DNA of 64,000 nt from Eledone cirrhosa (GCA_964016885.1 OZ024764.1:13702001-13766000); one strand, 5' to 3'. Shown: positions 1 to 63,512, counted from the first letter of the stretch. Made by a program: numbers and translations. The notes: a model not told the origin generated them from the sequence alone.

Positions 1-636
1 TATCCCAGTGCATTACTGGTACCTGCATATTAATAATGGGCACAGATTAAAGTCAAAGGCCAGCAATTTTGAGGAATAGAAAGTTGATCAACCCGACCCC
101 CAGTACATTACTGGTACTTTATTTATCGACCGCGGAAGGATGAACGGCAAAGCTAACCCCGGTGGGATTTGAACTCACATAGTTAAAGGGGCATAACTCT
201 ATGCTGCAAAAGATGGCGTCCGACGCTCTACTGGTTGGGTCAATTCACTGCCCCAAATAATAATAACAATAATAGTAATAATTATGTATTACATTAGGCA
301 CAAGGCCAGCAGGTTGAAGGTGGTAAGGAAGTCGATTAAATCAACCCCATTGTATTACTGGTACTTTATTTTATTGACCCCGTAAGGATGAAAGGCAAAG
401 TTAACCAAAGTGGCATTTGAACTCAGATCGTAAAGGGGCATAACTCTTTATATACTATATATATAATATATATATATATTATGTATATATTATATATATA
501 TATTTTATCGATATATATATTATATATATATATTTTATCGATATATATAATATATCGATATATATATTTTATCGATATATATAATATATCGATATATATA
601 TATATAAGATCAAAAGATGGTTAAAGGAGTTCCATG

Positions 637-707
637 TATTTTATTATGCGCATTTCAAAAACAAATATCATCATGCAATAACATTTGTGTTTTCATCAGA
701 TAAAATA
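637..707 (-). ncRNA. Type I minimal hammerhead ribozyme (family C) in a Penelope-like element at ~605-850
   Basis: Minus strand: TATTTTAT-CTGATGA-long helix II (ACAAATGTTATT/GATGATATTTGT)-GAA-ATGCGCAT (palindromic helix III)-A-ATAAAATA. Helix I is 8 bp. Flanked by (TA)n. Confidence 0.85.
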
Positions 708-850
708 GGAGGACATGATATGAAGGTTAAAAACACTTGTGGATAGTGCAGTTTTAAATCAACATATCTCCAGTCCTACAAACTGTAGAGTGCTTCTTAT
801 CCGATATCTGCATGGCTTTATTGAACTACAATAAAACTCACCTCCTACAT

Positions 851-881
<31 letters not shown>

Positions 882-1074
882 GTGAGGTTTTTTTACAAAA
901 TGAAAAAAAAAAAACGGTGTCCTACACAGTGTGAAAGTATTAAGGAAAAAAGATGAAATCGAAAATGCAACTGGAGTTTTTTTTTCTTATATATATACAT
1001 ATATATTATATATAAATCTAATATATTATATATCTATATATATAATATATTATATATATATGTATCTATATATA

Positions 1075-1292
1075 TAACGAAGGAAATGTGGTAAGGAACC
1101 AGGTGGACCATAACGCACCAAAGTACTCAATACTTAGGGTAGTAGAGTGGGTAATAGGAACGAGTAGGACCCCGATGGCTGAGCTCAAGCCGTTTCGACG
1201 GCTAATTCTGGACTAAATGAAATTTTTTATCCAGGATAAAAATTTTCATTTAGTCCAGACCAGAATTAGCCGTCGAGGTCCTACTCGTTCCT
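1075..1292 (-). mobile_element. Penelope-like foldback element, family B (3' half of an HHR). Other copies: ~11684-11878, 12302-12425, 12603-12784, 15770-15850, 16200-16393, 21487-21683, 44236-44448, 45738-45875, 52088-52132, 58870-58918, 59455-59652, 62977-63026
   Basis: Conserved GAA-ACGGC-TTGAGCTC(A/T)-GCCGT-C-GGGGTC (helix III plus GUC site), followed by a ~90 nt tail. The 5' end is inverted and copies are flanked by (TA)n. CTGANGA is not present in any copy. Confidence 0.7.
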
Positions 1293-2254
1293 ATATATAT
1301 ATATATATATAGGCTTAGGGGCTATATGGTTGATTGAATAGAGGCAGTGCTCCAGTATGCCCGCAGTCTAACCAAGAGAAGAACACAGAACTACACAGAA
1401 AAGGTTGAATTCTTTTAATGCAAAATTTTTTTTCTGATTTAGGCACAAGGCCAACAATTTAGGGGGAATTCAATTAAATCGACCTCAGCACATTACTGGT
1501 ACTTTATTTTATCAACACCGTAAGGATGAAAATCAAAGTATACCTCGGCGCGGGATTTGTACCGAGGCCGTAAAGGGCCATAACTTTATGCTGCAAAGCA
1601 TGGCGTCAGACGCTCTACCGATTACTACCAAACCGCCACCGTCGTTTTTGATGCAAATAAAGGTTTCTTATAAAGGCACAAGGCCAGCAATTTTGGGGAA
1701 GGGGAATGTCGATTAAGTCGACCCAAGTGTATTACTGGTAAGGATGAAAGTTAACCTCGGCGAAGGATTTGAACTCAGATCATAAAGGGCCATAACTCTA
1801 TGCTGCAAAGCATGGTGTCCGACGCTCTACCGATACTGCCAAACCAGCGTCCTTTTTGATGCAAATAATGTCAAATAAAAAAGGGTTAAGTCGTATTGTA
1901 TTTCAGGCGAATGATTTGAGGAGAGATGGCTAGATTTGGAGCGCCGAAAACGTAATATCTTGGTTAATATCTATTCTTTATATTTATAATGATCGATTTT
2001 TTTTTGTAATCATTTACATTGGTGCAACTACTTCGATTTCTAATTACAAGGGTCAGCTTAAAAGTTCATAAGGTGACCAAGATACTCTCATGGAATGACC
2101 ACACGGGGTTTATTTTTCAAAAAGGTCTCTGGAAAGAAAATGATTTTATTAAAATACAGCGTAGCCACACCCAAGAAACCTTTCCAGCGCTCCAGCCGTG
2201 ATCACCTCATTTTATTCAGAACTGCGCCATGCGCAGAGTTTTGCTAGAAAAAAT

Positions 2255-2785
2255 TCTCAACCTTAGAAATCTTTGTCGCCTCTCCAACCATGACCAACCC
2301 CATTTAGAACCCAGCGAGTGTGCAGACACAGGATTTAGGATCGGGATAGATGGTCACATTTGGAGCGCTTCCTCCCTCGAAAAAAAAAAAAAAGTGTGAA
2401 ACCCTCAACATTTTTTTTGGGGGGTTCAAACATGAATATTTTAATTTGGAATGGTGAGAGTACGCATGCGCAGAATTCGGGATCGGGGCAATGGAAGTTC
2501 GGAAACACTATTCTGAACCCTAGAAATCAGGGTCACCTCTCCAAGCATGACCAACTCCACCAATTTAGAACTCAGCGAGTGCGTATGCACAGGATTTCGT
2601 ATCGGGATAAACAGTCACAGTTGGAGCGCTTCCTCCTTAAAAAAAAAATAATAAAAACAATAACGTGAAAACCCTCAAAATCTTTTTTATGGGGTTCAAA
2701 CATGAATACCCTTTTTTTATTTTTATTTCGAATGGTGCGAGTACGCATGCGCGGAATTTGGGATCGGGGCAATGAAAGTTTGGAT
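2255..2785 (+). repeat. Diverged tandem duplication (~255 bp x2), each unit carrying an NRF1-like motif
   Basis: Repeated CCTCTCCAA..CATGACCAAC...GGATCGGG...AAACCCTCAA...TACGCATGCGC blocks. Confidence 0.75.
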
Positions 2786-2859
2786 CAAAAACACAATTTT
2801 ATTATGAATAACTCTTTATTTTATTCCGGCGTTCCACCCGTGACCATCCCTTTTTCGTA

Positions 2860-2970
2860 TTCTGCGCATGCGCATTCACATCGCTTACTTTTGATGTATG
2901 GCAGCAGCAGTCATGACCGAGGGTTATACATGCGCATGCGCGTTTCTGACAGCTTCTGAGCATGCGCAAA
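2860..2970 (+). promoter_or_regulatory. Probable promoter with clustered NRF1/EWG sites
   Basis: TGCGCATGCGCA at 2863-2874, TGCGCATGCGCG at 2931-2942, AGCATGCGCA at 2959, and more at 2461 and 2742. CpG-enriched, directly upstream of an ATG and a splice donor. Confidence 0.65.
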
Positions 2971-3025
2971 TTTCATAGCTCAGCAAACGAACATCATTTT
3001 GGATTATACTCCCACAGAAACAAGG

Positions 3026-3062
3026 ATGTACACTGTTGCTTCTAAAGAACTGAATTCAGTAT
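3026..3062 (+). CDS. Candidate first coding exon (MYTVASKELNSV..), unidentified gene
   Basis: AGG-ATG at 3026, open frame to donor GTAAGT at 3063 (alternative donor GTATGT at 3059), then AT-rich intron-like sequence. Confidence 0.45.
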
Positions 3063-3404
3063 GTAAGTAGGAACTTATTTTTTATTTTTTATTTTTATAA
3101 AATTTAATTTTATCAAATATGTCTTCTGTCAATTTTCATTATTACACTTGGTAACGAGATAAGTGTAAATAAATTAAATTAATTTTATATTTATTAATAC
3201 TTTCAATTAATTAGAAAACCAAGCATTGCGTGATATATTTATATAATTATATGTAGTGAATTAAAAAAAAATTTTAATAAATATTTAGTCAAAAAGACCT
3301 CCATTAGTAAATATATAAGCGTGGGTGGACATAAATTCCTTATTGAAAGTTACTTATAACTTTTGGCCAACTGTGACTACTTGGGATAAAACCAAAGACC
3401 TCAT

Positions 3405-3600
3405 AAGAGCACCTCCTTATTTTGCACGCACTGTCTTTGAGTGGTCTGTTGTCCAATTTCCAGGACATTGGTTGGGTTGTAGAGGCCCACGTGAATGGCC
3501 AGCAAGAAGCATTTTGTTAACGCCGTGCGGTTTTCTTTTCCAATGTGTCGGCGGGTGGGCAAAAGAAGTTCGTAGCTCAAAACCAAAAATCTCTGAGTAA
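3405..3600 (+). mobile_element. Tc1/mariner-superfamily transposase relic (DDE/D domain C-terminal part)
   Basis: APPYFARTVFEW...FPGHWLGCRGPREWPARSILLTPCGF..GWAKEV resembles the family motif GAPPH..VR.WL..FP.RWIGR.GP..WPARSPDLTPCDFFLWG..K. Confidence 0.85.
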
Positions 3601-3639
3601 ATTGCAGGAACGCATTTGCAATGTAGAAAGCAACATACA

Positions 3640-4270
3640 GCCAGAGTTCCTAAAAAGTAAGTCAATGATACACCCCCGACTATTACAAACACTGGTAGAC
3701 AATATGGTGACTATGTAGAATTTTAACACTGTATAACATTGTATAACGCCATTATACTGTTTAAAATAAACATGTTTTATGTAAACATGGAGTTTCTTTC
3801 CACATACCCTGTATACCGTCTAAGTTCCTGATGAAATCAGTCAAGGATAAACCTAGGTATTTACAAACACTGGTGGACAACACTGGTATCTATGCAGAAT
3901 TTTAACACTGTACTGCCCTTCTACCAATAATTAATAAAGTTATTAACAGTTTTTAATAGGGAGTTTCCTTATGCCGATCCTGTATAGTGCTTGAGTTCCT
4001 AATGAAAGCAATCAAGGATATACCCAGGCTATTACAAATACTGGTGGACAACACTGGTATCTATGTAGAATTTAAACACTGTACTGCCCTTCTACCAATA
4101 ATTAATAAAGTTATTAACAGTTTTAAATAGGGTGTTTCCTTGTACCCAGCCTTATAGCGCCTGAGTTCCTGATGAAGGCAATCAAGGATATACCCAGGCT
4201 ATTACAAATACTGGTAGACATCACTGGCGCCTATGTAGAATTTCAACACTGTACTGTACTTCTACTAATC
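3640..4270 (+). repeat. Tandem repeat, ~171-178 bp x4
   Basis: TTACAAA(C/T)ACTGGT recurs at ~3683, 3861, 4032 and 4202. Confidence 0.85.
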
Positions 4271-4679
4271 TATATATTACTAAAACTCTGTGATTGCTTG
4301 CTTGCTTGTCTGTCTGTAATGTAATAGAGCCAAAAGGGCGCATAATGGGAAAATACTTTGAAAGGAGGTTGACCCTGAAATGGAGATACAGATGGAATAA
4401 AACAAGTTTCGCGTAAATCGGAGCCCGGGTTCCCGAGATGTGGGATTTTTCTGGGTACCTTCATAAACAGAGACCCCGCAAGGATGAAAGGCAAAGCTAA
4501 CCTTGGCGGGATTTGAACTCAAAACGTATAGGGCTGTAGAAGAAATATATTAGTTGTATATTTTTTCACTTGTATATAATTACTGTATATGACCCAGGGA
4601 GGTAAGATTAGTGGGTGACACCAGTGGGGATCGAGCCATACTGCGTTTCACTCGCTCTCCCCATCTCTCATTATTTTGA

Positions 4680-5770
4680 ATTGGCAGTATCGGTAGAGGG
4701 TTGGACGCCATGCTTTCTAGCATAGTTACGTCCCTTTACAGTCTGAGTTCAAATCCCGCCGAGGTTGACTTTGCCTTTCATCCTTACGGGGGTCGATAAA
4801 ATAAAGTACCAGTAATATACTGGGTAATTGCTGGCCTTGTGCCTAAAGTAGAAACAATTATTTATTCAAAGTAAATCCTGGTTCAAACGTAAACAGCGGT
4901 GGATTGGCAGAATCGGTAGAGGGTCAGACGCCATGCTTTGACGCATAGAGTTACGGCCCTTGCCATTCTGAGTTCAAATCCCGCCGAGGTTAACTTTGCC
5001 TTTCATCCTTACGGGGGTCGATAAAATAAAGTACCAGTAATACACTGGGTAATTGCTGGCCTTGTGCCTAAAGTAGAAACAATAATTATAAGCAAATAGA
5101 AGCCCACGCGCTGCTCGCCACGTGGCTCCGGCGGACAGAATAGAGAAGGCCTTTCCCGGAAGATAGTGTGGGCGACGCGTTTTGAAGAGCCATTCCAGCT
5201 CTCGAGGTTTACACCTGAAGGTAGCTAACCTTCGGGTCCGGGATTGGCCCCTATAGCCAAATCAGTGTGCGCCACCACACGGAGCAGGACAACAATTCTT
5301 CCCACTGATCTTCTCAAGCGAAGAATTCGCCATTCCGCCATTGACAGGTACTTTGTTATCGAAACCTTAAAGCTGAAACTCAAAGTTAGCTTGATGATTG
5401 TTTCTACAATGTAAACATCTATACTATAATAAAGTAAGGGGTGCAGGACTCAGTCCTGTTTATATATTGTTTATCCCGTTAGTAAAATAAGGGCCGTAAC
5501 TCTATGCGTCAAAGCATGGCGTCTGACCCTCTACCGATACTGCCAATCCACCGCCGTTTACGTTTGAAGCAGGATTTACTTTGAATAAATAATTGTTTCT
5601 ACTTTAGGCACAAGGCCAGCAATTACCCAGTGCATTACTGGTACTTTATTTTATCGACCCCGTAAGGATGAAAGGCAAAGTCAACCTCGGCGGGATTTGA
5701 ATTCAGATCGTAAAGGGACGTAACTATGCTGGAAAGCATGGCGTCCGACCCTCTACCGATACTGCCAATT
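4680..5770. mobile_element. SINE-1 cluster: plus copies 4680-4860 and 4900-5088; minus copies 5490-5555 and 5590-5770
   Basis: Same A/B boxes and central domain as the other SINE-1 copies. Confidence 0.85.
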
Positions 5771-6208
5771 GAATAAATATTACATAATTTATCTACTAAA
5801 TTTCCTAGCTGTTGATTAAACATAAATATTCTTATATATAATGATTGTTTATTTTAAGGTCCAGTTCTTTTAAACATGTTTAAATGTCAATATTTCCGGT
5901 TATGATATAATGGACGCCATATCACATCACTTACATAAACCTTCATATATTTACATCGTTATATCATAACATTTATATTTCTGTCGCTAATATTCTCCTT
6001 TTTCGTTTTCATAACATTTCACCGTAATGCAGTTTATATATAATATCGTCTTTTTTTAAATGTATCATGGATTACTTTACTGATTACAGAAGACAGTGTA
6101 ACACAGTCTCTCTTCAATTTCTGTGCATATTCTCAATTACGATTTTATTTGATGTATAATATCTACATGTATATATACTTGTGTATAATATCTACATGTA
6201 TATATCTA

Positions 6209-6360
6209 TCTAAGGCGGGTAAAATTCCCGAGATCCATGGACGAGTTCTCTCCAGCGGTCTCTGTCCCTCATTATCGCCGCCATACCCTGCGTCTCCAAC
6301 AGACCAGTGCCTGTCCTTAGGGCATCAACATACGTTAACCTTGGTCTTCCACTTCCAGTG
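6209..6360 (-). mobile_element. RTE-clade LINE 3' end fragment (also 21697-21843)
   Basis: GRPRLTYVDALRTGTG...MRDRDRWRELV; same family as the fragment at 41867. Confidence 0.85.
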
Positions 6361-6614
6361 TATATACATTTGCGTATAATATCAATATACACACTACAGA
6401 TGCTAGCAGAAAAGCACCCGAATGGTGATTTTTCTTCTAGTACTAATAATATTTGAGAGATGAAAATAAATAAATAATTTTCATAGGTTCCCGGGTATTG
6501 TAATGGTAGGGGTAAATAGTAGGGTACTTTATTAAAGCTCACACCAATGTAGGTTTAACTGACATGCTAAAAGGACGTACCTAGTATCTTCCTCGAGTGT
6601 TTTAATGATAGTTG

Positions 6615-7340
6615 TTGTTGTTACAGCCCACACCTATGCAGGTTTAGCTGGCCCCCTCCAGGGTATATCTCGTTGGAGGTGTCTTGGGTGGTTTAATGAT
6701 AGGGACCCCAGTCCTATCATGTTGTTACAGCCCACACCTATGCAGGTTTAGCTGGCCCCCTCCAAGGTATATCTCGTTGGAGGTGTCTTGGGTGGTTTAA
6801 TGATAGGGACCCCAGTCCTATCTTGTTGTTACAGCTCACACCGAGGCAGGTTTAGCTGGCCCCCTCCAAGGTATATCTCGTTGGAGGTGTCTTGGGTGGT
6901 TTAATGATAGGGACCCCAGTCCTATCATGTTGTTACAGCTCACACCTTATGCAGGTTTAGCTGGCCCCCTCCAAGGTATATCTCGTTGGAGGTGTCTTGG
7001 GTGATTTAATGATAGGGACCCCAGTCCTATCTTGTTACAGCTCACACCGAGGCAGGTTTAGCTGACCCCCTCCAAGGTATATCTCGTTGGAGGTGTCGTG
7101 GGTGATTTAATGATAGGGACCCCAGTCCTATCATGTTGTTACAGCTCACACCGAGGCAGGTTTAGCTGGCCCCCTCCAAGGTATATCTCGTTGGAGGTGT
7201 CTTGGGTGATTTAATGATAGGGACCCCGTCCTATCATGTTGTTACAGCTCACACCTATGCAGGTTTAGCTGGCCTCCTCCAAGGTATATCTCGTTGGAGG
7301 TGTCTTGGGTGGTTTAATGATAGGGACCCCAGTCCTATCA
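6615..7340 (-). repeat. ~100 bp tandem array (7 copies) continuing the body of the adjacent SINE-2
   Basis: Unit contains the hairpin TGATAGGGACCCCAGTCCTATCA, also seen in SINE-2 at ~13357; joined directly to a SINE head at 7340-7482. Confidence 0.85.
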
Positions 7341-7482
7341 TCTCATTTCTCCAGCTGAGTAAACTGGAGCAACGTGAAATAAAGTGTCTTGCTCAAGGAA
7401 ACAACACATCACCCGGTCTGAGAATTGAACTCACAACCTTTCGATTGCAAACCCAATGCTCTAACCATTAAGCCATGCACCT
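7340..7482 (-). mobile_element. tRNA-derived SINE-2 (CORE/V-like CCTTGAGCAAGACACTT). Other copies: 13212-13560(+), 14350-14697(-), 51641-51760(+); fragments 41729-41795(-), 42376-42442(-)
   Basis: A box TGGCTTAGTGGTTAG and B box GAGTTCAATTC. Long copies end with GGAAGGGCATCCAGCTGTAGAAA...(GAT)n, an RTE-type tail. Confidence 0.8.
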
Positions 7483-7484
7483 TC

Positions 7485-9340
7485 ACACTCTATACTCTAT
7501 ATACACAGTCTATACTCTATATATACACTATATACTCTATATATATACACTCTATACTCTATATATACACTCCATACTCTATATATACACTCTATACTCT
7601 ATATATACCCTCTATAGTCTATATATACACTCTATACTCTATATATACACTCTATACTCTATATATACACTCCATACTCTATATATACACTCAATACTCT
7701 ATATATACACACTATACTCTATATATAAACTATATACTCTATATATACACTCAATACTCTATATATACACTCCATAGTCTCTATATATACACTCCATACT
7801 TTATACTCTATATATACACTCAATACTCTATATATACACTCTATACTCTATATATACACTCCATACTCTCTATATATACACTCCATACGCTATATATACA
7901 CTCAATACTCTATATATACACTCCATACTCTATACATACCCTCAATACTCTATATATACACTCCATACTCTATATATACACTCCATACTCTCTATATATA
8001 CACTCCATACTCTCTATATATACCCTCCATACTCTATATATAAACACTCTATACTCTATATATACACTCTATACTCTATATATACCCTCCATACTCTATA
8101 TATACACTCAATACTCTATATATACACTCTATACTCTATATATACACTCTATACTCAATGTATACACTATATACTCTATATATACACTCCATACTCTATA
8201 TATACACTCTATACTCTATATATACACTCAATACTCTATATATACACTCTATACTCTATACATACCCTCAATACTCTATATATACACTCAATACTCTATA
8301 CATACACTCTATACTCTCTATATATACTCAATACTCTATATATACACATTATACTCTATACATATACTCTATATATATACACTCCATACTCTATATATAC
8401 ACTCCATACTCTATACTCTATATATACACTCCATACTCTATATATACATTCTATACTCTATATATATACTCCATACTCTATATATACACTCTATACTCTA
8501 CATATACACTCAATACTCTACATATACACTCCATACTCTATATATACACTCCATACTCTATATATAAACTCAATACTCTATATATACCCTCTATAGTCTA
8601 TATATACATTCAATACTCTATATATACCCTCTATACTCTATATATACACTCCATACTCTATATATACACTCTATACTCTATATATACACTCTATACTCTA
8701 CATATACACTCCATACATACACTCCATACTCTATATATACACTCTATACTCTATATATACACTCTATACTCTACATATACACTCCATACTCTATATATAC
8801 ACTCCATACTCTATATATACACTCTATACTCTATATATACACTCTATACTCTATATATACACTCTATACTCTATATATACACTCCATACTCTATATATAA
8901 ACTCAATACTCTATATATACCCTCTATAGTCTATATATACACTCAATACTCTATATATATACTCAATACTCTATATATATACCCTCTATACTCTATATAT
9001 ACACTCCATACTCTATATATACACTCAATACTTTATATATACCCTCCATACTCTATATATACACTCTATACTCTATATATACACTCAATACTCTATATAT
9101 ACACTCTATACTCTATATATACACTCTATACTCTACATATACACTCAATACTCTACATATACACTCCATACTCTATATATAAACTCAATACTCTATATAT
9201 ACCCTCTATAGTCTATATATACACTCTATACTCTATATATATATACACTCCATACTCTATATATACACTCAATACTTTATATATACCCTCCATACTCTAT
9301 ATATACACTCTATACTCTATATATACACTCTATACTCTCT
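7485..9340 (+). repeat. ~20 bp minisatellite (ACTCTATATATACACTC[C/T/A]AT)n
   Basis: Direct inspection. Confidence 0.95.
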
Positions 9341-9656
9341 ATATAAATATATGTATGTATATATATATACGTAAATGTATGTATATATATACGCAAATGT
9401 ATGTATATATATACGCAAATGTATGTATATATATACGCAAATGTATGTATATATATACGCAAATGTATGTATATATATACGTAAATGTATGTATATATAT
9501 ATACGCAAATGTATGTATATATATACGCAAATGTATGTATATATATACGTAAATGTATATATATATATACATATATGTATATATACATATACAAACACAC
9601 ACCTATATATATACACACACACACACACCCAGATATATATATATATATACACACAT

Positions 9657-9697
<41 letters not shown>

Positions 9698-10211
9698 ATG
9701 TCACTGCCAAACAGGACGTAATTATAAGTTTACAAAGCATATATATACTCATATACGGAAAATGTGAAAAAAAAAATAAAATATACACGTATTTAATATA
9801 TATATTTTCTTCATCATTGTCGTTGTTAATGTGTGTGTATGTTTGTGTATATAAATGTGTATACACATAGGTTAGTGGTTAGTGATCGGCTCATATTAGG
9901 GAGTTCGTAAGTTCAATTCACGGCTCTGCTCTCTGTATTTCAACTAAAGATTATTTTCCTAATCCACTTAGCTGATAAACAAGGTGATGCCCCTTATAAT
10001 TCAAAGTGTGTGTATATATGTATATTATATACACACACACACATATATATATAAATATACACAATTATATGTATATATATATCAATATATAAATACATAT
10101 ATGTATATATATATACATACACATACCTATATATACACATATATATAAATGCATATATATGTATATATATATGTATATATATATACATATATAAATATAT
10201 ATATATATAGA

Positions 10212-10700
10212 TGTCGGGTCACTCTTGAGTGCTACTGGTAACATGTAACCCAGTACAATCTGTCGCATGGCAACCCCACCAAGTTTACTTAGTGAAGAGG
10301 GTGATTTTGGACACCCTGCAGGACAAAAAACAAAACCTGACAAAGGGCGGAAGAACCCATAAGAGTCAACGGCCATCCAAAAGCGTGTAAATATGTATAT
10401 ATACATGTACCGTGCAGTTAAACCACTGGGAGCGAAGGACCCCTAGCCTTTGTCAGGGCATTCTTCTAGGAGAAGGCAACTCAGGAAACTGGGATAACTC
10501 TGATATAAAACCTGCGGCTCAGTAGTTACCGATGATGTTGATCTTTTCTTCTTTTTAGGTTAGCAAAATCTGCAGGTCCTTGCTCATGCCAATCTGCAGT
10601 CAGGAAGTAGGAGGGTAGCCGGAAATTCAGCACACCATAATGTCTACAAAACCCGACACGGTGACCTGTGTTGAGCAATCCGTTTGAAACCTCCCAGTAA
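10212..10700 (+). mobile_element. Probable RTE-clade LINE 5' UTR fragment
   Basis: GGGCGGAAGAACCC...TCTAGGAGAAGGCAACTC...ACTCTGATATAAAACCTG resembles RTE 5' UTR motifs; begins next to (TA)n. Confidence 0.5.
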
Positions 10701-10717
10701 CGCAGAGCTTCTGCCTT

Positions 10718-11570
10718 TAATCCTTACGGGGTCGATAAAATAAAGTACCAGTAATGTACTGATTTAATTGCTGGCCTTGTGCTAATAGTAGAAAAAATTA
10801 TCTTTAAGACCTCTATTGGTCACGAATGGCATGCTTTTTGCACCTAAAAAGTTCCTCTCCGAGGGACGAGTCCGGGCAAGTTGTGGGAGATTAGCAGTCA
10901 GCTATGCATACCAGCCTTCTCCCTCCACGCCACCGATGTTGTCTAAGGTAAACGAAGCTTCGTTTACATATAAAAGATGTTTAGTGTGTATAGAGATGTT
11001 ACGCGCGTTCCGCAGAAGACTGGCTCAACGTCAGTCATAGGGGTTATGGACCCGACTCCACTATCGATGTGCCCTTCCGATTGCCGATGTGACTTCAAAA
11101 TATATATATACACACACATATATATATTTGTCATATCGGTAGTCCGAAGAGCAGATGGCTAGTGGAGTCGGGTCCATAACCCATATGACTGACCTTGAGC
11201 CAATCCTCTGCGGAACGCGCGTAACGGGTCCATACACAATAAATATATTTCATATGTAAAAGAAACTTCCTTTCCCTTTGACAACACCGGTGGCGTGGGG
11301 CGAGGAGGCTGGTATACATGGACCACTGTTGGTCTGCCACAGCTTACCCGGATGTGTCCCTCGTGGGGGAACTTTCTAGGTGCGAAAAGCATGTCATTCG
11401 AGACCGATAGAGATCTTACAAATAATTGTTTTTACTATTGGCACAAGGCCAGCAATTATCCCAGTGCATTACTGGTACTTTATTTTATCGACACCGTAAG
11501 GATGAAAGGCAAAGTTAACCTCTGCGAGATTTGAACTCAGACCTTAAAGGGGCGTAACTCTATGCGGATG
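10718..11570. mobile_element. Composite foldback: SINE-1 part + Ceph-SINE-like domain + antisense HHR-bearing segment, as an inverted pair
   Basis: Arms ~10718-11098(+) and ~11128-11570(-) around a TA/CA spacer. Ceph-like GGTCACGAATG..AAGTTCCCC..TCCGGG..ATACCAGCC..CACGCCACCGATGTTGTC. Confidence 0.75.
11135..11233 (+). ncRNA. HHR-like motif with extended helix II (degenerate). Partners: ~10990-11090(-), 13989-14086(-), 14165-14250(+), ~15172-15272(-), 15362-15462(+)
   Basis: C(C/T)GAAGA-GCAGA-[~50 nt]-TCTGC-G(A/G)AACGCGCGT-A-AC; helix I ATTGGC.GT/AC..GTCGAT in the 15362 copy. Confidence 0.65.
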
Positions 11571-11627
11571 TGAAGCCTCTCTTAACATACTGTTTGCCTC
11601 TATATCGTTGTATTATGAATCATCTAT

Positions 11628-11686
<59 letters not shown>

Positions 11687-11901
11687 CGAAGGAGTTGTGG
11701 TAAGGAACCAGATGGACCATAACGCACCAGAGTACTCAATACTTAGGGTAGTAGAGTGGGAAATAGGAAAAAGTATGACCCCGACAGCAGAGCTCAAGCC
11801 GTTTCGACGGCTATTTCTGTCCAGAAATACCCGTCGAAACCGCTTGAGCTCTGCCGTCGGGGTCATACTTTTTCCTATATATATATATATATATATATAT
11901 A

Positions 11902-12265
11902 TCATCATCATCATCATCGTTTAATGTCCATGTTCCACGCTTGCATGGGTTTGGACGGGAGTTTTCCCACTTGAGTGGTTGTCATTGCTCGCATAGGACT
12001 GTCTGGCGTGTTTTCTACAGCTGGATGCCCTTCCTAACACCAACCACATTTACAGTATGGGACTGGGAGGTTTTTACCGTGTTGCCTACACGGCCACATT
12101 ACAGCGTGGACTGTCTGGCTTGATTTCTACAGCTGGATGCCCTTCCTAACACCAACCACATTTACAGTGTGGGGCTGGGAGGGTTTTACCGTGTTGCCTA
12201 CAAGGCCACATTACAGCGTGGACTGTGTGTTTTTTTGTCGTGACACCTACACGACCTCATTTGTT
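11902..12265 (-). mobile_element. SINE 3' part with RTE-type (GAT)n tail and internal ~115 bp duplication; inverted copy at 15850-16170
   Basis: Repeated CTACAGCTGGATGCCCTTCCTAACACCAACC; tail CCAAACCCATGCAAGCGTGGAACATGGAC.TTAAA(TGA)n. Confidence 0.75.
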
Positions 12266-12919
12266 TCGGCCTGATATATATATATATATACATATATATA
12301 TCAGAAAGGGTGTGGGAAAATACCAGGTGGACCATAATCCGCCAGAGTACACGATACTTGGGGTACTAGAGTTGGTAATATGAAAAGATTCAGGACCCCG
12401 ACGGTTGAGCTACGGCCGTTTCCACATCTATCTATCTATCTATCTATATAAATAACAGATTAAAGTTTAAGCAAAGAATCGCTGCTTTTACTCTTAATGG
12501 GTTTTTATATATTTATATATATATATTATCCTTATCGAGCCCTCTTCGGATTTTAGTCTTCACATATATTATTATTAATATCGTATATATATATATATAT
12601 ATATAGGAACAAGTAAGACCCCGACGGCTGAGCTCAAGCCGTTTCGACGGCTAATTAGACGTCGAAACGGCTTGAGCTCAGCCGTCGGGGTCTTACTTGT
12701 TCCTATTACCCACTCTACTACCCTAAGTATTGAGTACTTTGGTGCGTTATGGTCCACCTGGTTCCTTACCACATTTCCTTCGTTATATATATATATATAT
12801 ATTCATTAGTTAAGCAAAACAAGACCACAGATTTCACAAGGAAGACATTATTAAAAGATTGTCAGCATATTTTAGTTTGATGTAAGGAATGTAGAGAATA
12901 ATAATAATAATAATATTAA

Positions 12920-13102
12920 TAATAATTGTTTCTACTTTAGGCACAAGGCCAACAATTACCCAGTGCATTACTGGTACTTTATTTTATCGACCCCGTAAAG
13001 ATGAAAGGCAAAGTTAACCTCGGCGGAATTTGAACTCAGACTGTAAAGGGACGTAACTATGCTAGAAAGCATGGCGTCCGACCCTCTACCGATACCGCCA
13101 AT
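12920..13102 (-). mobile_element. SINE-1. Further copies: 32205-32422(-), 35860-36030(+), 56250-56440(-), 56450-56546(+), 59140-59330(-), 62650-62832(-)
   Basis: Near-consensus match to the other copies. Confidence 0.9.
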
Positions 13103-54001: not shown

Positions 54002-55795
54002 CAGAGCTGTGATCTCAATCCAGAGATTCTTTCCTGAGACATTCTAACCACATGTCTGTAGTATCAGAGCTGTGATCTCTCAATTCAGAGATTCTTTCCT
54101 GAGACATTCTAACCACATGTCTGTAGTATCAGAGCTGTGATCTCTCAATTCAGAGATTCTTTCCTGAGACATTCTAACCCCATGTCTGTAGTATCAGAGC
54201 TGTGATCTCTCAATTCAGAGATTCTTTCCTGAGATATTCTAACCACATGTCTGTAGTATCAGAGCTGTGATCTCAATCCAGAGATTCTTTCCTGAGACAT
54301 TCTAACCACATGTCTGTAGTATCAGAGCTGTGATCTCAATCCAGAGATTCTTTCCTGAGACATTCTAACCACATGTCTGTAGTATCAGAGCTGTGATCTC
54401 TCAATTCAGAGATTCTTTCCTGAGACATTCTAACCACATGTCTGTAGTATCAGAGCTGTGATCTCTCAATTCAGAGATTCTTTCCTGAGACATTCTAACC
54501 CCATGTCTGTAGTATCAGAGCTGTGATCTCTCAATTCAGAGATTCTTTCTTGAAACATTCTAACTACATGTCTGTAGTATCAGAGCTGTGATCTCTCAAT
54601 TTAGAGGTTCTTTCCTGAGACATTCTATCCACATGTCTGTAGTATCAGAGCTGTGATCTCTCAATTCAGAGATTCTTTCCTGAGACATTCTACCCACATG
54701 TCTGTAGTATCAGAGCTGTGATCTCTCAATCCTGAGATTCTTTCCTGAGACATTCTAACCACAAGTCTGTAGTATCAGAGCTGTGATCTCTCAATTTAGA
54801 GGTTCTTTCCTGAGACATTCTATCCACATGTCTGTAGTATCAGAGCTGTCATCTCTCAATTTAGAGGTTCTTTCCTGAGACATTCTATCCACATGTCTGT
54901 AGTATCAGAGCTGTGATCTCTCAATTCAGAGATTCTTTCTTGAGACATTCTAACCACATGTCTGTAGTATCAGAGCTGTGATCTCTCAATCCAGAGATTC
55001 TTTCTTGAGACATTCTAACCACATGTCTGTAGTATCAGAGCTGTGATCTCTCAATTCAGAGATTCTTTCCTGAGACATTCCAACCACATGTCTGTAGTAT
55101 CAGAGCTGTGATCTCTCAATTCAGAGATTCTTTCCTGAGACATTCTAACCACATGTCTGTAGTATCAGAGCTGTGATCTCTCAATTTAGAGGTTCTTTCC
55201 TGAGACATTCTATCCACATGTCTGTAGTATCAGAGCTGTCATCTCTCAATTTAGAGGTTCTTTCCTGAGACATTCTATCCACATGTCTGTAGTATCAGAG
55301 CTGTGATCTCTCAATTCAGAGATTCTTTCTTGAAACATTCTGACTACATGTCTGTAGTATCAGAGCTGTGATCTCTCAATTTAGAGGTTCTTTCCTGAGA
55401 CATTCTATCCACATGTCTGTAGTATCAGAGCTGTGATCTCTCAATTCAGAGATTCTTTCCTGAGACATTCTAACCACATGTCTGTAGTATCAGAGCTGTG
55501 ATCTCTCAATTCAGAGCTGTGATCTCTCAATTCAGAGATTCTTTCCTGATACATTCTAACCACTTGTCTGTAGTATCAGAGCTGTGATCTCTCAATTCAG
55601 AGATTCTTTCCTGAGACATTCTAACCACATGTCTGTAGTATCAGAGCTGTGATCTCTCAATTCAGAGATTCTTTCCTGAGACATTCTATCCACATGTCTG
55701 TAGTATCAGAGCTGTGATCTCTCAATTCAGATTCTTTCCTGAGACATTCTAACCACATGTGTGTAGTATCTGAGCTGTGATGTCTCAATTCAGAG
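54002..55795. repeat. 65 bp minisatellite (with 63 bp variants), ~27 copies
   Basis: Unit GTATCAGAGCTGTGATCTCTCAATTCAGAGATTCTTTCCTGAGACATTCTAACCACATGTCTGTA. Confidence 0.95.
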
Positions 55796-56743
55796 AAGTA
55801 GCGGCTCAACCTGAAGTGACTCTCTCTATTTCTTATTAATTTTGAAAATTTAAAAGTAATTTGAGCTTATGTAATCAGGTTAGTCATCATTAACGAACTT
55901 TAATTAATTATTTTGCTGAGCTTAATTGTATTTTTTATATGGCTAGGAATTGTATAATATGATTAACAAAGAAAATGTGGATTGTGTATGTATGTACATA
56001 TGCACATATAATATATAAACGTATATATATGGTATGGTAATGTATATCTATCTATTTATCCATACATCTACACACTCATACATACATACATACATATCTA
56101 TTTGTGTGTGTGTGTGTGAAATATTGGTATATGAATATATTTACATATACAAGTATATATATAAATCTATCTATATATGTGTGTATATATCTGTTTATAT
56201 ATATATTTCTATATATGTGTATATATATATATATTTATATATATATATATAATTGTTTCTACATTTGGCACAAGGCCAGCAATTACCCAGTGCATTACTG
56301 GTACTTTATTTTATCGACCCCGTAAGGATGAAAGGCAAAGTTAACCTCGATGGGATTTGAACTCAGACTGTAAAGGGACGTAACTATGCTAGAAAACATG
56401 GCGTCCAACTCTCCACCGATACTGCCAATTCACCGCCGTTATATATATATAAGGTTAACTTTGCCTTTCATCCTTACGGGGTCGATAAAATAAAGTACCA
56501 GTAATGTACTGGGTAATTGCTGGCCTTGTGCCTAAAGTAGAAACAGTTATATATATATAATGAGATTCAAATGTGATTTCCATATTTAATACGCATTTTA
56601 CATGTGTTAAATTACTTGTGTATATTTATATATACATATTTTTTTCTTCTTTTAAACTCTAAATCGTAAGATATACATACATGCATATACAACTTATATA
56701 TATATATATATATATATAGATACACTTATATTTACAAATATAC

Positions 56744-56784
<41 letters not shown>

Positions 56785-56810
56785 AATGTATATGTAAGTA
56801 TATAAATGTA

Positions 56811-56842
<32 letters not shown>

Positions 56843-56949
56843 CATATATACACATATATGATATGCTTATATATTATAGATACGTGTAAACTTTCAAATC
56901 AAAAGGAAGAATCAACACCTATCGATATACAAAGGAATAGTTTATTTTA

Positions 56950-56999
<50 letters not shown>

Positions 57000-57139
57000 A
57001 ATGTATATATATATGTATATATATATATATATTTATGTATGAATGTATATATATGTATATATATATATAACAAGGCAGGCCACGAACTGAAACTAGTTAA
57101 AAAAAAAAAAAATTAATACATTTTGAAAATAATCCCGAC

Positions 57140-57180
<41 letters not shown>

Positions 57181-57208
57181 CATATATATGTATAAAAACA
57201 AACACACT

Positions 57209-57246
<38 letters not shown>

Positions 57247-57267
57247 TACACACATGTATGGATAAAA

Positions 57268-57317
<50 letters not shown>

Positions 57318-58917
57318 AATATCTATACACACGTGTATGGATAAAAACACACACACACACACACACATATATATATGTATATATGTATATATATATATGT
57401 GTGTGTGTGTATTCACGAACCACTAAAGAAAAATTATCTATGAAAGTGCATTAAGTTTCGACAAGTACAGCACCTACACCACCACCTACAACAACACCTA
57501 CACCTACACCAACACCACCACCAACACTAACACCAACACCACCACCTACACCAACACCACCACCTACACCAACACCACCACCTACACCACCACCTACACC
57601 AACACCACCACCTACACCACCACCTACACCACCACCACCACCTACACCACCACCACCACCTACACCAACACCACCACCAACTGCACTACTACCACCCCCT
57701 ACACCAACACCACCACCAACTGCACTACTACCACCCCCTATACCACCAACAACAACTATTCAGCAACAGCCCCACCACCAACATACCACCACCATACCAA
57801 CAACAACTACAGCACCAACAGCACCACCACTACCACCACCACTACCACCTACACCACTACCACTACAAGCAGCACTACCACCTACACCACAACCACTACC
57901 ACTACCACTACCACCACTACCACTACCACCACCACTACCACCGCCACTACCACCACTACCACCACCACCACCACTACCACCACCACTACCACCACCACCA
58001 CCACCACTACCACTACCACCACCACTACCACCACCACTACCACTACCACCATCACCACCGCTACCACCACCACCATCACCACCACCACCACCACCACCAC
58101 CACCACCACCACTACCACCACCACTACCACCACTACCACCACTACTACCACTACCACCACTACTACCCCCCCCCCCCCCCCCCACTACCACTACCACCAC
58201 TACCACTACCACCACTACCACCACCACTACACCCCCCAACCACCACTACCACCACCACCACTACCACCACCAACACCCCCCCACCACATCAGCAACAATA
58301 AAATTATCTAAAAAGCTGCCATGTAAGAATCTTCTAGATGTGTGAGGAATATTCTCTTGGATTTCCTTCCTTCTTACCATTTCTATATGTTGAGGATATC
58401 CGACTGGTGGCGGTGTGGTGTGGTAGTGTGGTGTGTATAATTGCGTGGTGGTGTGGTGGTATGGTGTCATGAGTGTGGTTGTGGTGGTGTGGTAGTGTTG
58501 GTGTGGTGGTTGTGGTGTGGCTTTCTGTGTGATGTGTGTTGGTGTGATGTGGTGTGGTGTTATGTGTATGGTGGTATGGTGTGGTGTGGTTATGTGTATG
58601 GTGGTGTGATGTGGTGTTGTGGTGTGGTGTGGTGTTATGTGTATGGTGGTATGGTGTGGTGTGGTTATGTGTATGGTGGTGTGATGTGGTGTTGTGGTGT
58701 TATGTGTATGGTGGTATGGTGTGGTGTGGTTATGTGTATGGTGGTGTGATGTGGTGTTGTGGTGTGGTGTTATGTGTATGGTAGTGGTGTGGTTGTGTGG
58801 TGTTGCCATGTGTATGATGATGGTGGTGGTGTGGGGTGGAGTACTTGATACTTTGGGTTAGTTCAGAACTAGCTGGCGAAAGGGCCGGAGCTCAGCCGTC
58901 GGGGTCCTGACTCTTTT

Positions 58918-58952
<35 letters not shown>

Positions 58953-58973
58953 TGTTTATACTTAATATAAAAA

Positions 58974-59026
58974 TGACTTCTACAGGACTAGAACTGTTTC
59001 ATTCTGGAGAAATCATCAGGAAGCCA
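58974..59026 (-). ncRNA. Intact type I HHR (family A)
   Basis: TGGCTTC-CTGATGA-TTTCTCCAGAAT-GAA-ACAG-TTCTAGTC-CTGT-A-GAAGTCA; helix I differs in sequence from the 46 kb copy but still pairs. Confidence 0.85.
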
Positions 59027-59649
59027 GGGCTAATCCTGGAGAAGCCATTTCTATATTAAATATTTATACTCTATGTATTGAGTACCTTATCTACTGTGGT
59101 TACCCCCAATTGAACCCGGGATAAACTTATATATATAGTAATTGTTTCTACTTTAGGCACAAGGCCAGCAAATACCCAGTGCATTACTGGTACTTTATTT
59201 TATCGACCCCGTAAGGATGAAAGGCAAAGTCAACTTCGGCGGGATTTGAACTCAGATCGTAAAGAGACTTAACTCTATGCTGGCAAGCATGGCGTCCGAC
59301 CCTCTACCGACTCTGCCAATCCACCGCCCTATATATATATATCGTAATAATAATAAATTTGAAGACTAAAATCGAAAGAGGGCGCGATAAGGATAAATAT
59401 ATATAAGATATATAAGAACCGTAGAGCAAATATTTATTAAAATATATATATATAATGGAGGAAGTGTGGTAAGGAACCAGGTGGACCATATCGCACCAAA
59501 GTAGTCGATATTTTGGGTAGTAGAGTGGGTAATAGGAAAATAGTAAGAACCCCGACGGCAGAGCTCAAGTCGATTCGACAGCTATTTCTGGAGTCCAGAA
59601 ATAGCTGTCGAAACGACTTGAACTCTGACGTCCGGGTTCTGTCTATTTT

Positions 59650-59689
<40 letters not shown>

Positions 59690-59693
<4 letters not shown>

Positions 59694-60315
59694 TAAAGTT
59701 AGTCCTTCATCAGTGATCTTCCAACCATCATTGGTATTTCATCGCTTTAAAGACCATATACCTCCGGTTTGTGCGAGCAACGGCTAAAACTAGTCGTTGG
59801 GACACGTAAATAAAGGGGACGCGAGTATAAACAACAAAAATGGTGAAGCAACGAAAAGTGAGGAAGATGAAGTCAAGTCCCAAATTTCTATGAATTTAAA
59901 TTCGGTGAAATCGTGAACGAGAGAGAATAAAGACCATCAAACCTGGTTGGAATGTGAGCAAGGAAGGAATTCCGTACAGGTCTAACGGGAGGAAGAAGGG
60001 ATCTAGTCTGTGATTTCGGTGAACGTGAGTTCTATGAAATCGTAGACGAGAGATCACCGAATTTAAATTCATAGAAATTTGGGTCTTGACTTCATCTTCC
60101 TCACTTTTCGTTGCTTCACCATCTTTGTTTGTTTACACTCTCGCTGTCCCCTTTATTTACGTGTCCCAACGACTTTTTTTAGCCGTTGCTCGCACCAACC
60201 GGAGGTATATGGTCTTTAAAGCGATGAAATACCAATGATGGTTGGAAGATCACTGATGAAGGACTAACTTTATTCATATGTAACCCATTAGCAACGCCGC
60301 AGCACGTTTATTTTC
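59690..60315. mobile_element. ~600 bp foldback element in (TA)n (arms ~220 bp); single-arm copy at 49430-49632
   Basis: 59690-59908 is the reverse complement of 60054-60277. Confidence 0.85.
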
Positions 60316-62480: not shown

Positions 62481-63173
62481 TATAAATATATACATACACA
62501 TATATATATATATATATATACACATATATATAGATATACATATATAGATATATATATACATATATATATATATACATATATATAGATATACATATATAGA
62601 TATACACATATATATATATATATATACATATATATACATATATATATATAATTGTTTCTACTTTTGGCACAAGGCCAGCTTTTACCCAGTACATTACTGG
62701 TACTTTATTTTATCGACCCCCCGCCCCCGTATGGATGAAAGGCAAAGTTAACCTCGGCGGGATTTGAACTCAGATCGTAAAGGGACGTAACTATGCTGGA
62801 AAGCATGTCCGACCCTCTACTGATACTGCCATCGAAGTTTAGCTGCAGTACAGCAGGTATAATTTGATTTGTTTTGAGGCAATCACAGAGCACTCAATGG
62901 ATCGAAAGTTGAAAACGTTACGCAACAGTTATGACTTCATCAGACAGCTAAACATTTATATATATATATATTTATATATGAAAAGATTCAGGACTCCGAC
63001 GCCTGAGCTCCGGCGGTTTCGACATCTATATAAATATATATGTATATACATATATATATATATATATACATGCATGTATATACATATACATGTATATACA
63101 TATACATGTATATACATGTATATGTATATACATGTATATGTATATACATATATATACATATACATGTATATAC

Positions 63174-63319: not shown

Positions 63320-63512
63320 GCGCAAATAAATCTGTATATATCTATCTATACATTAAAACCACATATATATTAGGTCATCAAGTATGAAATTTGTAGAAAT
63401 TGTTTTGTTTTTTCTACAAATTTCATAACTGACGACTAAATATATACACTCACACACATATACACATATTTGCATATAAATCTGTATCTATCTATATAGA
63501 CAGACACACACA

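Follow-up and report, generated by a model that had tools for sequence, protein, structure and literature searches.

Hammerhead ribozyme islands at (TA)n tracts in Eledone cirrhosa as probable short insertions of Penelope-like element 3' ends

Hammerhead ribozymes and (TA)n targeting are already described for Penelope-like elements (PLEs) of the Hydra clade, a group of C-terminal EN+ elements that includes Hydra-1_Obim of Octopus bimaculoides (Craig et al. 2021, PMC8557442). Frangieh et al. (2024, PMC11167929) describe PAc, a Poseidon element of Anolis, whose tail is defined by two internal start sites of the reverse transcriptase (RT); each strand of the target is cut and then extended, and mutating the ribozyme does not abolish insertion in vitro. 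Published retrozyme units are non-coding and tandem, of about 150-450 bp, with a type I hammerhead each (PMC7229834; bioRxiv 10.64898/2026.07.22.740005).

The window analysed here is a 64-kb stretch of the Eledone cirrhosa genome (GCA_964016885.1, OZ024764.1:13702001-13766000), in which a sequence-only reading had proposed a dense set of hammerheads from about ten families of TA-targeted Penelope-like mini-elements. A strict type I descriptor recovers eight folds, against a mean of 0.025 per shuffle (40 dinucleotide shuffles, 200-nt blocks) and none in the reversed sequence; tolerating an offset at the base of stem II raises the number to 12, whereas 60 shuffles average 0.03. These correspond to 12 of the 16 sites named beforehand and have the CUGANGA and GAAA boxes, a UH site, three helices and an open stem I, while the remaining four (34247, 34478, 46131 and 47416) by eye retain intact CTGANGA and GAAA boxes with one stem partly broken. 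The 16 sites represent 11 sequence families (Table 1), and the observation is confirmed. A Watson-Crick 3-8 core pair (C3-G8 or U3-A8) is present in all 12 complete folds and in family P (U3-A8 in 21 of 22 copies), and self-cutting is the predicted function of the folds. An origin by chance in AT-rich, repetitive DNA has next to no probability: Rfam hammerhead models give no match in the window at the gathering threshold (at E<=1 the best 150 of 593 matches are simple-repeat) and stem I is frequently A/U-rich, but dozens of variants combine the same core with unrelated stems, and the shuffle controls reject such an origin.

Table 1. Islands in the 64-kb window (window coordinates). Strict, fold recovered by the strict descriptor; relaxed, recovered by the relaxed descriptor only. 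Element types are assigned from sequence motifs.
Feature	Coordinates	Strand	Remarks
Family A (Hydra-type PLE 3' end) island	605..850	-	two head-to-head arms
Family A tailless arm	605-766		complete type I fold, core -699 (strict), stem III ATGCGCAT
Family A inverted tail arm	767-850		joined to tailless arm 605-766
Family P, extreme 3' end of Neptune/Nematis-type PLE	876..990	-	downstream of U3-A8 ribozyme, ribozyme not included; matches 3' ends of L041, L042, L046, L049, L050, L029
Family B (Hydra-type) inverted mini-copy	1079..1276	-	ribozyme 3' half only
Family B (subfamily B2) inverted mini-copy	11686..11871	-	
Family B single arm	12303..12422	-	diverged
Family B inverted mini-copy	12608..12782	+	
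Family B tail only	15773..15850	-	
Family B inverted mini-copy	16204..16387	+	
Family D inverted mini-copy	16696..16846	+	ribozyme 3' half
Family B inverted mini-copy	21490..21682	+	
Family A-type copy	31491..31688	-	complete fold, core -31677 (strict), and tail
Family C island	33690..33955	+	complete fold, core +33806 (strict), long stem II
Family K island	34215..34365	+	minimal fold, core 34247, stem I broken
Family L island	34412..34596	-	near-complete fold, core 34478; relative at 33480-33660
Family E retrozyme-like unit	35483..35850	+	complete fold, core +35627 (relaxed), stem III ACTAGT
Family D-type inverted mini-copy	42470..42655	+	
Family B inverted mini-copy	44238..44446	+	
Family H inverted copy	45476..45680	.	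damaged folds, cores -45484, +45564
Family B inverted mini-copy	45741..45872	+	
Family D (Hydra-type) inverted mini-copy	46058..46258	+	complete fold on minus, core -46116 (relaxed); near-complete on plus, 46131
Family F island	47370..47510	+	near-complete fold, core 47416
Family G island	47562..47666	+	complete fold, core +47583 (strict)
Family H-type island and adjoining fragment	47700..47960	-	complete fold, core -47801 (strict)
Family D-type inverted mini-copy	47962..48165	-	core mutated
Three family I (Hydra-type) 3' ends	48373..49220	-	complete folds, cores -48473, -48816, -49171 (strict)
Family N fragment	49434..49626	-	
Family J island	51880..52035	+	minimal fold, core +51910 (relaxed)
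Family B tailless single arm	52090..52142	-	
Family B tailless single arm	58856..58916	+	
Family D-type inverted copy	58955..59128	.	complete fold on minus, core -59019 (relaxed)
Family B inverted mini-copy	59457..59650	-	
Family N inverted copy	59692..60310	.	circularly permuted ~630-bp non-coding unit, CTGATGA half core only
Family B tailless single arm	62980..63030	-	

Helix III, described beforehand as minimal and palindromic, is an exact palindrome in six of the 12 folds and longer in families C, D and G; an AATAAA, placed downstream in the same description, truly lies there in only two folds and overlaps stem I in four. The islands, thought to be much of the 'unique' DNA, occupy 23% of the non-simple DNA (7.4 of 32.0 kb, 45 hand-drawn islands). 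Folds are denser in the window (12 per 64 kb) than in 26 arbitrary stretches (2.6 per 64 kb; nine folds in 224 kb), but similar in number per (TA)n (12 per 7.3 kb and 9 per 7.4 kb, respectively); fold density in the window follows (TA)n content. Extrapolation from the arbitrary stretches gives 55,000-230,000 folds in the 3.0-Gb genome, against 2,000-9,000, obtained with different descriptors, in Cervera and de la Pena (2014, PMC4209133). The minimal hammerheads of metazoan PLEs described there likewise number thousands per genome in many families, are mostly single truncated copies, with opposite-strand pairs, and share the short palindromic helix III, the extra base before stem II and the U3-A8 core variant, whereas helix II or III is long in several of the present families.

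The islands are almost certainly PLE ends, to judge from their continuations elsewhere in the genome. The window itself lacks a PLE ORF, as had been stated: six PLE proteins gave no tblastn match in it at E<=1. At other loci, families A, B, D and I continue upstream into ORFs for RT and GIY-YIG with Hydra-clade motifs, and family P into a Neptune/Nematis-type ORF, so that the linkage named as a check in the sequence-only reading is borne out for these five families. The order ORF, 3' UTR, ribozyme, tail and (TA)n is contiguous in independent loci (at least 12 for B, at least eight for A, four for I, two for D and six for P), and 3' ends adjoin (TA)n in nearly all loci read. The ORF ends 863-931 nt upstream in family A (at least eight loci), 1047 and 1058 nt upstream in D (L222 and L232), and 671-845 nt upstream in I (L238, L243, L247 and L250). 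Partial tandems of the pLTR were seen in L330 and L331, the latter with the layout pLTR, 790-codon open frame, pLTR.

By its motifs, the source of the islands would be mainly the Hydra clade, as defined by DKT, RWK, CxCx5C, CxxC and CxH in section 11 of PMC8557442. DKT and RWR (for RWK) occur in L331 and L334, the two family B frames extending to the N-terminus, a reading limited to family B because the A, D and I frames stop short of this region. The CxCx5C linker is CNCPAKNKC in A, CNCLNKEAC in D and CNCPDRSIC in the B copy L122, and CxxC and CxH (around conserved E and N) are present in all three families. The last C of the linker is changed in the B copies L121, L331 and L334. A Hydra-type profile matched Pfam-confirmed RT/GIY-YIG ORFs with 96.4% probability (E 1e-9), and the Atlas neighbours are clusters with HTH_animal, GIY-YIG or RVT_1 in a minority or majority of their members; Pfam found the RT domain in none of four Hydra-type frames, and GIY-YIG below threshold in one. 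Family P is classed as Neptune/Nematis-type, the two not told apart, by the CX2-5CxxC linker and DKG of its L041 frame, both as in Neptune/Nematis; this 938-aa ORF contains RVT_1 and GIY-YIG (Pfam).

Like the Hydra clade (PMC8557442), these elements have a single ORF, RT then GIY-YIG, with DKT, RWK-like, CxCx5C, CxxC and CxH motifs, a type I hammerhead near the 3' end, (TA)n targets, partial tandems, an inverted 5' copy and an optional tail. Unlike the one octopus family reported there, at least four Hydra-type families are found here, with hundreds to thousands of candidate copies each; tails are 65-78 nt rather than 30-40, and the helices of the ribozyme listed for Hydra-1_oBim are by eye unlike those of all window families. 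The family B unit also differs in its non-canonical core and its tandem period of ~3.5 kb, which exceeds the 'generally under 3 kb' of the clade but is not a strict mismatch, since the source says 'generally'.

The inverted duplicates noticed beforehand are real, and 63 pairs were counted among copies gathered incidentally. One tailed and one tailless arm are joined head-to-head in 59 of them (B 38/41, D 15/16, A 6/6), the two types of arm having fixed 3' ends, both at TA. Families A, B and D each have one preferred 5' end, at -123, -41 and -45, respectively; the best 8-nt window holds 9/17, 27/49 and 13/22 of the ends (P<0.0002, P<0.0002 and P=0.0014 against a geometric-truncation null), counted on matches of at least 88% identity, in which divergence between subfamilies may make alignments end early. 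The boundary is found in single arms too. Among 7-14 incidental arms each, families G, H and J lack a sharp 5' boundary.

The pieces had been called solo-pLTR debris; PLE ends they appear to be, but 'debris' is probably the wrong image, since their two fixed 3' ends and favoured 5' end give them the look of primary insertions. Their origin by decay of long insertions, through recombination or deletion between flanking (TA)n or pLTRs, is very improbable. Rotifer solo pLTRs have been put down partly to recombination or deletion (PMC3846280), and slippage-prone repeats are abundant in the region; however, many copies are young, with 100% identity across the query in 40 of 40 scored A matches and 13 of 40 scored B matches, family B junctions differ in sequence from copy to copy but keep a constant place, and the tailed/tailless pairing is strict.

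Whether the sharp 5' boundary corresponds to the RNA start of the element is evenly balanced. The boundary A nucleotide is preceded, at a distance of 30-31 nt, by a TATA-like box in families D (TATAAATA) and B (TATTYATAT), and none is present at -30 in family A; pLTRs have been found to contain TATA and Inr motifs (PMC3846280). An extra unexplained G precedes the boundary A nucleotide in 12 of 21 arms, at least two of the 12 being explicable by the partner arm, and in family B the G:A ratio at this position is 6:3 against 1:8 at control offsets, a borderline difference (Fisher P=0.05). Alternatively, the same elements may be involved with a structural stop at the boundary, where a stable hairpin within or beside the ribozyme would make the RT stall or fold back, with the inverted arm arising by self-priming instead of from a second primed nick. 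We regard this as rather unlikely, although 26 of 41 B pairs have both arms ending in -43..-33, the boundaries of B and D fall within the fold or at its edge, and palindromic junctions were taken as self-priming in PMC3846280. Copies of family B next to ORFs also favour a stop: none of 30 begins at -41, and their 5' ends are scattered from about +97 to beyond -300, which is not expected under a single RNA start. On the other side, a stop would not predict the TATA spacing or the extra G's, the A boundary lies ~65 nt upstream of the fold, the boundary is shared by single arms, and the arms of the L121 pair are strongly unequal (2.6 kb vs ~0.17 kb).

The best explanation of the islands, which we consider probable, is that they are 3'/pLTR ends of TA-targeting PLEs, mostly of the Hydra clade, inserted short via two internal RT starts. 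In this scheme, a (TA)n tract would be nicked on its two strands by the GIY-YIG endonuclease, and the nicks would each prime synthesis at one of two start sites that contain TA and lie downstream of the hammerhead. The RNA would start at the pLTR promoter; the two cDNAs would copy its first 60-260 bases, running toward its 5' end, and would be joined head to head. The tail would thus be set by two RT starts, as in PAc; in the available part of PMC11167929, however, the PAc starts are not homologous to the cut DNA, whereas both lie at TA here, and genome-wide tailed/tailless pairing and a sharp 5' boundary are not described. Tailed/tailless pairing at TA, the pile-up of 5' ends per family and the mismatched core of family B were not found in print.

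Family B, with the most copies in the window, has A8 in all 57 long copies, C3 in 53 and U3 in four (one locus being listed twice), so that a C3.A8 mismatch replaces the Watson-Crick 3-8 pair in 53 of 57; a fixed mismatch of this kind is not mentioned in the available part of PMC4209133. Because most B copies begin inside the ribozyme and the core is mismatched, hammerheads are likely not required to make the mini-insertions; their predicted role would be to cleave a long tandem precursor, acting as dimers if their helix III is short. A broader proposal, tentative and somewhat doubtful, is that ribozyme mini-insertions arise in large numbers as a by-product of TA-targeting PLEs, the two nicked strands of a (TA)n tract being primed at two TA sites on element RNA and extended back to the cap, and that family B starts its RNA inside its own hammerhead and has spread with a broken core. 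If this is true, folds on the order of 100,000 would be a genomic record of the RNA start and RT starts of each family, and the spread of family B would show ribozyme cleavage to be dispensable for PLE transposition in a living genome. The fixed end point of the islands offers a testable mechanistic lead.

The attribution to PLE ends, which is backed by ORFs in families A, B, D, I and P, extends less fully to the others. With 1.5-kb flanks, no ORF was contiguous with family C, G, H or J at the 19-24 loci examined per family (19 for each of C, G and J). Family E is circularly permuted, with periods of 422, 422, 430, 483 and 511 bp and no contiguous ORF among 81 matches. It resembles non-LTR retrozymes (PMC7229834; bioRxiv 10.64898/2026.07.22.740005) in its non-coding tandem unit with one type I hammerhead, its periods being at or just above the published range, but its units have internal (TA)n and PLE-like inverted arms. 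Family N is circularly permuted with a period of ~620-640 bp and no contiguous ORF, and in contrast to retrozymes it has no complete core; a GAAA box pairing with CTGATGA was looked for and not found. Both E and N are likely to be non-autonomous, as circles or repeats mobilised by the PLE enzymes. It is improbable that the islands in general represent non-LTR retrozymes (circles of ribozyme RNA) in their own right and not the ends of autonomous elements: the form of E and N, the lack of an ORF link for C, G, H and J in the loci sampled and the description of retrozymes as PLE-derived in the two sources just cited agree with it, but ORFs are contiguous with five families, the upstream sequence of C, G and J is unique and non-circular, and the 343-bp trimer of family I is a local duplication. 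The three copies of this trimer are 98% identical to one another against at most 93% to copies elsewhere, which indicates the duplication, and the triplication includes the microsatellite flanks; together with the Hydra-type ORF link, the local duplication speaks against a retrozyme array that spread as a tandem. Elsewhere in the genome, family G occurs as tailed and tailless copies and with inverted arms.

The assembly comprises 3.0 Gb in 1796 contigs, and the bulk of the window (G000:C25:13702001-13766000) is made up of microsatellites and tandem arrays. A strict descriptor of the type I hammerhead found eight folds in the window, against 0.025 in 40 block shuffles, and a relaxed descriptor found 12, against 0.03 in 60 shuffles; the feature is real, and all 12 folds are among the 16 sites named in the sequence-only reading. 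The remaining four sites retain both core boxes intact but have one damaged stem. Together, the 16 sites represent 11 families, lettered here. A search of the window with Rfam missed the folds and returned no hammerhead match. Other properties ascribed to the islands held only in part: helix III is exactly palindromic in six of the 12 folds, AATAAA lies truly 3' of the fold in two of the 12, and the 45 hand-drawn islands, which had been thought to account for much of the 'unique' DNA, occupy 23% of the non-simple sequence (32 kb). Nine folds were present in 26 arbitrary stretches (224 kb, at round coordinates and mostly on large chromosomes), making the window about five times denser than average, yet its fold density per kb of (TA)n is similar to that of these stretches. 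Extrapolation from this small sample (224 kb) gives about 120,000 folds genome-wide, with a 95% interval of 55,000-230,000; up to 120,000 copies of retrozymes (ORF-less ribozyme repeats) are reported from the much larger axolotl genome (PMC7229834).

Six proteins of Penelope-like elements (PLEs) used as queries gave zero matches in the window, in agreement with the earlier statement that it contains no PLE ORF. The proposal that the islands are PLE ends is supported, and they can now be tied to Hydra-clade and Neptune/Nematis-type elements elsewhere in the genome, which contains 10,597 GIY-YIG candidates. Four long frames drawn from these contain RVT_1 and GIY-YIG, with RVT_1 just below the curated cut-off in two. 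The family P fragment is the 3' end of an element of the type found at locus L041 (938 codons, DKG, CX4CxxC linker), and this end is located 933-1421 nt 3' of the ORF in six loci. None of the 13 family B copies in the window has more than the 3' half of a hammerhead; long copies elsewhere continue into the complete fold, then a 1.1-kb UTR and finally an ORF. This link was found in at least 12 loci (among the first 14 of 31 flagged matches), with a spacing of 1075-1202 nt and no long TA tract between. At locus L331, an uninterrupted Hydra-type open frame of 790 codons lies between two PLE terminal repeats (pLTRs). The Hydra-type frames were missed by a Pfam scan; a Hydra-type profile aligned across 517 columns with the ORFs that Pfam had confirmed (96.4% probability, E 1e-9). 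They contain DKT, CxCx5C, CxxC and CxH, with RWR in place of RWK; DKT, RWK, CxCx5C, CxxC and CxH define the Hydra clade (PMC8557442, section 11), and the supplement of the same work describes Hydra-1_Obim of Octopus bimaculoides, which has a canonical hammerhead and a preference for (TA)n.

Family A is linked to an ORF in at least eight loci, family I in four and family D in two of 20. The interpretation of family A as a fixed 250-bp SINE-like unit was rejected as a query artefact, a shorter query having given long UTRs, ORFs and the inverted tail. The family D UTR contains a long compound microsatellite, so that the element itself disperses microsatellite DNA; similar simple-repeat UTRs occur in families G and P. 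A Neptune-type endonuclease 1 kb 5' of a D copy (locus L216) was taken as a chance neighbour, because a 54-bp TA tract intervenes and the usual D UTR is absent. Families E, H, N, F, J, M, Q and V are only co-located with ORFs in the fetched loci, and no link was counted, since long TA tracts or other elements lie between or the orientation is wrong. No contiguous ORF was found within 1.5 kb of families C, G and J (19 loci each) or H (24 loci). All four have 3' ends fixed at TA, and C, G and H also have inverted arms; sightings of F, K and L were incidental only.

Variants of the ribozyme core occur in two of these families. In family P, 21 of 22 copies contain the U3-A8 core, a previously described variant (PMC4209133). 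All 57 long copies of family B have A8, combined with C3 in 53 and with U3 in four (one locus being listed twice), and the helices are conserved across subfamilies. In an anole element, cleavage is lost when positions 3 and 8 carry other single mismatches, and insertion in vitro persists in ribozyme mutants (PMC11167929). Identity of 100% over 122 nt in 13 of 40 scored matches indicates that family B is young, and on the simplest reading its ribozyme may have been weak or dead while it spread. MFE folding of two B copies yielded alternative hairpins and not the hammerhead, a non-decisive result.

Many copies are head-to-head inverted mini-copies, each half of which is termed an arm. Arms were counted in window copies and in copies that happened to lie in loci fetched for another purpose. 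Relative to the predicted cleavage site, each of families A, B and D has two fixed 3' ends, tailless and tailed (B, +20 and +97; D, about +19-28 and +89; A, +53 and +131), both at a TA within the element in B and A. A tailed arm is paired with a tailless one in 59 of 63 head-to-head pairs (B, 38/41; D, 15/16; A, 6/6). For the 5' ends, loci fetched with a same-family query and matches below 88% identity were dropped; 27 of 49 B arms, 13 of 22 D arms and nine of 17 A arms start inside one 8-nt window, a clustering far above the expectation from geometric truncation. No such peak was seen in families G, H and J, with 7-14 arms each.

The boundary base is an A in each of families B (-41, within loop II), D (-45, on the 5' strand of stem I) and A (-123). 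Families B and D have a TATA-like box 30-31 nt 5' of it, and family A has none there. In 12 of 21 arms this base is preceded by an unexplained G, which is doubtful in at least two of them; in family B, G and A at the preceding position stand at 6:3, compared with 1:8 at control offsets. An added G at the 5' end can be read as a copied RNA cap. However, not one of 30 ORF-proximal B copies has its 5' end at -41, which counts against an RNA start at the boundary. The main rival explanation is a structural stop followed by self-priming, a process that has been proposed for palindromic junctions (PMC3846280). A cap G in all 30 D junctions was discarded because this count is biased by the query, and those loci were excluded from the G count. 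An origin of the D mini-copies from an RNA whose short first exon had been spliced was also dropped: the upstream sequence of 20 long copies lacks a donor site, and what looked like an exon is the partner arm.

The sequences show that the islands belong to PLEs, are flanked by TA and have two 3' ends, paired arms and preferred 5' ends. According to published work, the upstream pLTR is where transcription begins (PMC2377424), reverse transcription starts internally at two sites, which set the tail, with both target strands cut and extended (PMC11167929), and hammerheads with a short helix III are thought to act weakly, as dimers (PMC4209133). Under the RNA-start model, each nick in (TA)n would prime at one TA start site close to the RNA 5' end, the cDNAs from both nicks would extend to the cap, and the two would be joined head to head.

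Published work already covers hammerheads in pLTRs, their presence in thousands of copies within a genome, pairs on opposite strands, TA targeting and a Hydra family from octopus; PLE expansion in octopus is known too (PMC13282606, PMC8967140). The PLE type being known, the window itself is no surprise, and its interest lies in the anatomy of the insertions and in the core of family B. How inverted and tailed PLE insertions arise and whether PLE hammerheads have any function are described as open questions (PMC8557442, PMC11167929); the thousands of young copies, the L331 frame and the B core variants (C3.A8 versus U3-A8) make both directly testable. In genomes of this kind, much of the short 'unknown' DNA that separates microsatellites can be annotated as PLE ends; ribozymes go unmentioned in the main text of a 2026 repeat annotation of octopus (PMC13282606). 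In the literature searched, which includes few subscription papers, no description was found of the tailed/tailless pairing, of the sharp 5' boundary or of a fixed C3.A8 core, although Lunse et al. 2017, a paper on PLE hammerhead variants, may already describe core variants.

Two families are circularly permuted non-coding units: E, with a period of 422-511 bp and a complete fold, and N, with a period of about 620-640 bp and a half core only. Family N may be a retrozyme that has lost its ribozyme, or the bearer of an unrecognised fold; consistent helices for a hammerhead of type II or III were found neither by eye nor by folding. A 343-bp trimer considered as a retrozyme is instead a local duplication.

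Coordinates of features in the window and in loci fetched elsewhere in the genome (L-numbers)
Feature	Position	Observation
Family P	window 876-990	PLE 3' end
Family N	window 59692-60310, 49434-49626	~630-bp repeat, 2343 candidates in genome; two TA-bounded 3' ends, inverted arms
Family M	window 34610-35000	390-bp inverted island, one arm bearing a CTGATGA half core; L059 contains relatives
Family Q	window 45903-45990, 59340-59440, 12457-12577, 16460-16506, 44620-44762, 21841-21897	TA-flanked end fragments, inverted arms in other loci; no core seen, parent element not found
Further retrozyme-like unit	L042:6500-7420	459-bp tandem, complete type I fold, form akin to C
Compound (TA/TG) microsatellite	L222:300-1500 (minus); L226, L227, L218	up to ~1 kb, in D 3' UTR
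Neptune-type element	L047:2900-3100 region (minus)	predicted non-canonical hammerhead, U3-A8, GCAA replacing GAAA
Large inverted repeats	window 10712-11511, 13901-14305, 14838-15609	CTGAAGA box at junction (cores +14174, -14077), GAAA distant; SINE-like copies nested inside; no relatives among fetched loci
Diverged 171-bp tandem	window 3640-4269	CTGATGA or variants, GAAA box absent
TA-flanked islands	window 62860-62960, 63364-63446	single CTGATGA or CTGACGA box
LINE-like fragments	window 41867-42397 (minus), 44760-45463	presumably 3' end and body of LINE-type elements, by resemblance; two frames without Pfam match
Abundant SINE-like repeat	22 window places, e.g. 99-445, 1491-1842, 4676-5087, 22136-23008	~3.6 kb in total, partly in tandem; commonest of the window, presumably resembling octopus repeats
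tRNA-related SINE head	window 7316-7485, 13219-13381, 14527-14696, 51642-51757	one copy meets Rfam tRNA threshold
Minisatellite arrays	window 23092-26031 (72 bp), 26365-29100 (67 bp), 54002-55796 (65 bp), 6616-7341 (104 bp)	65-bp unit present in L038 too
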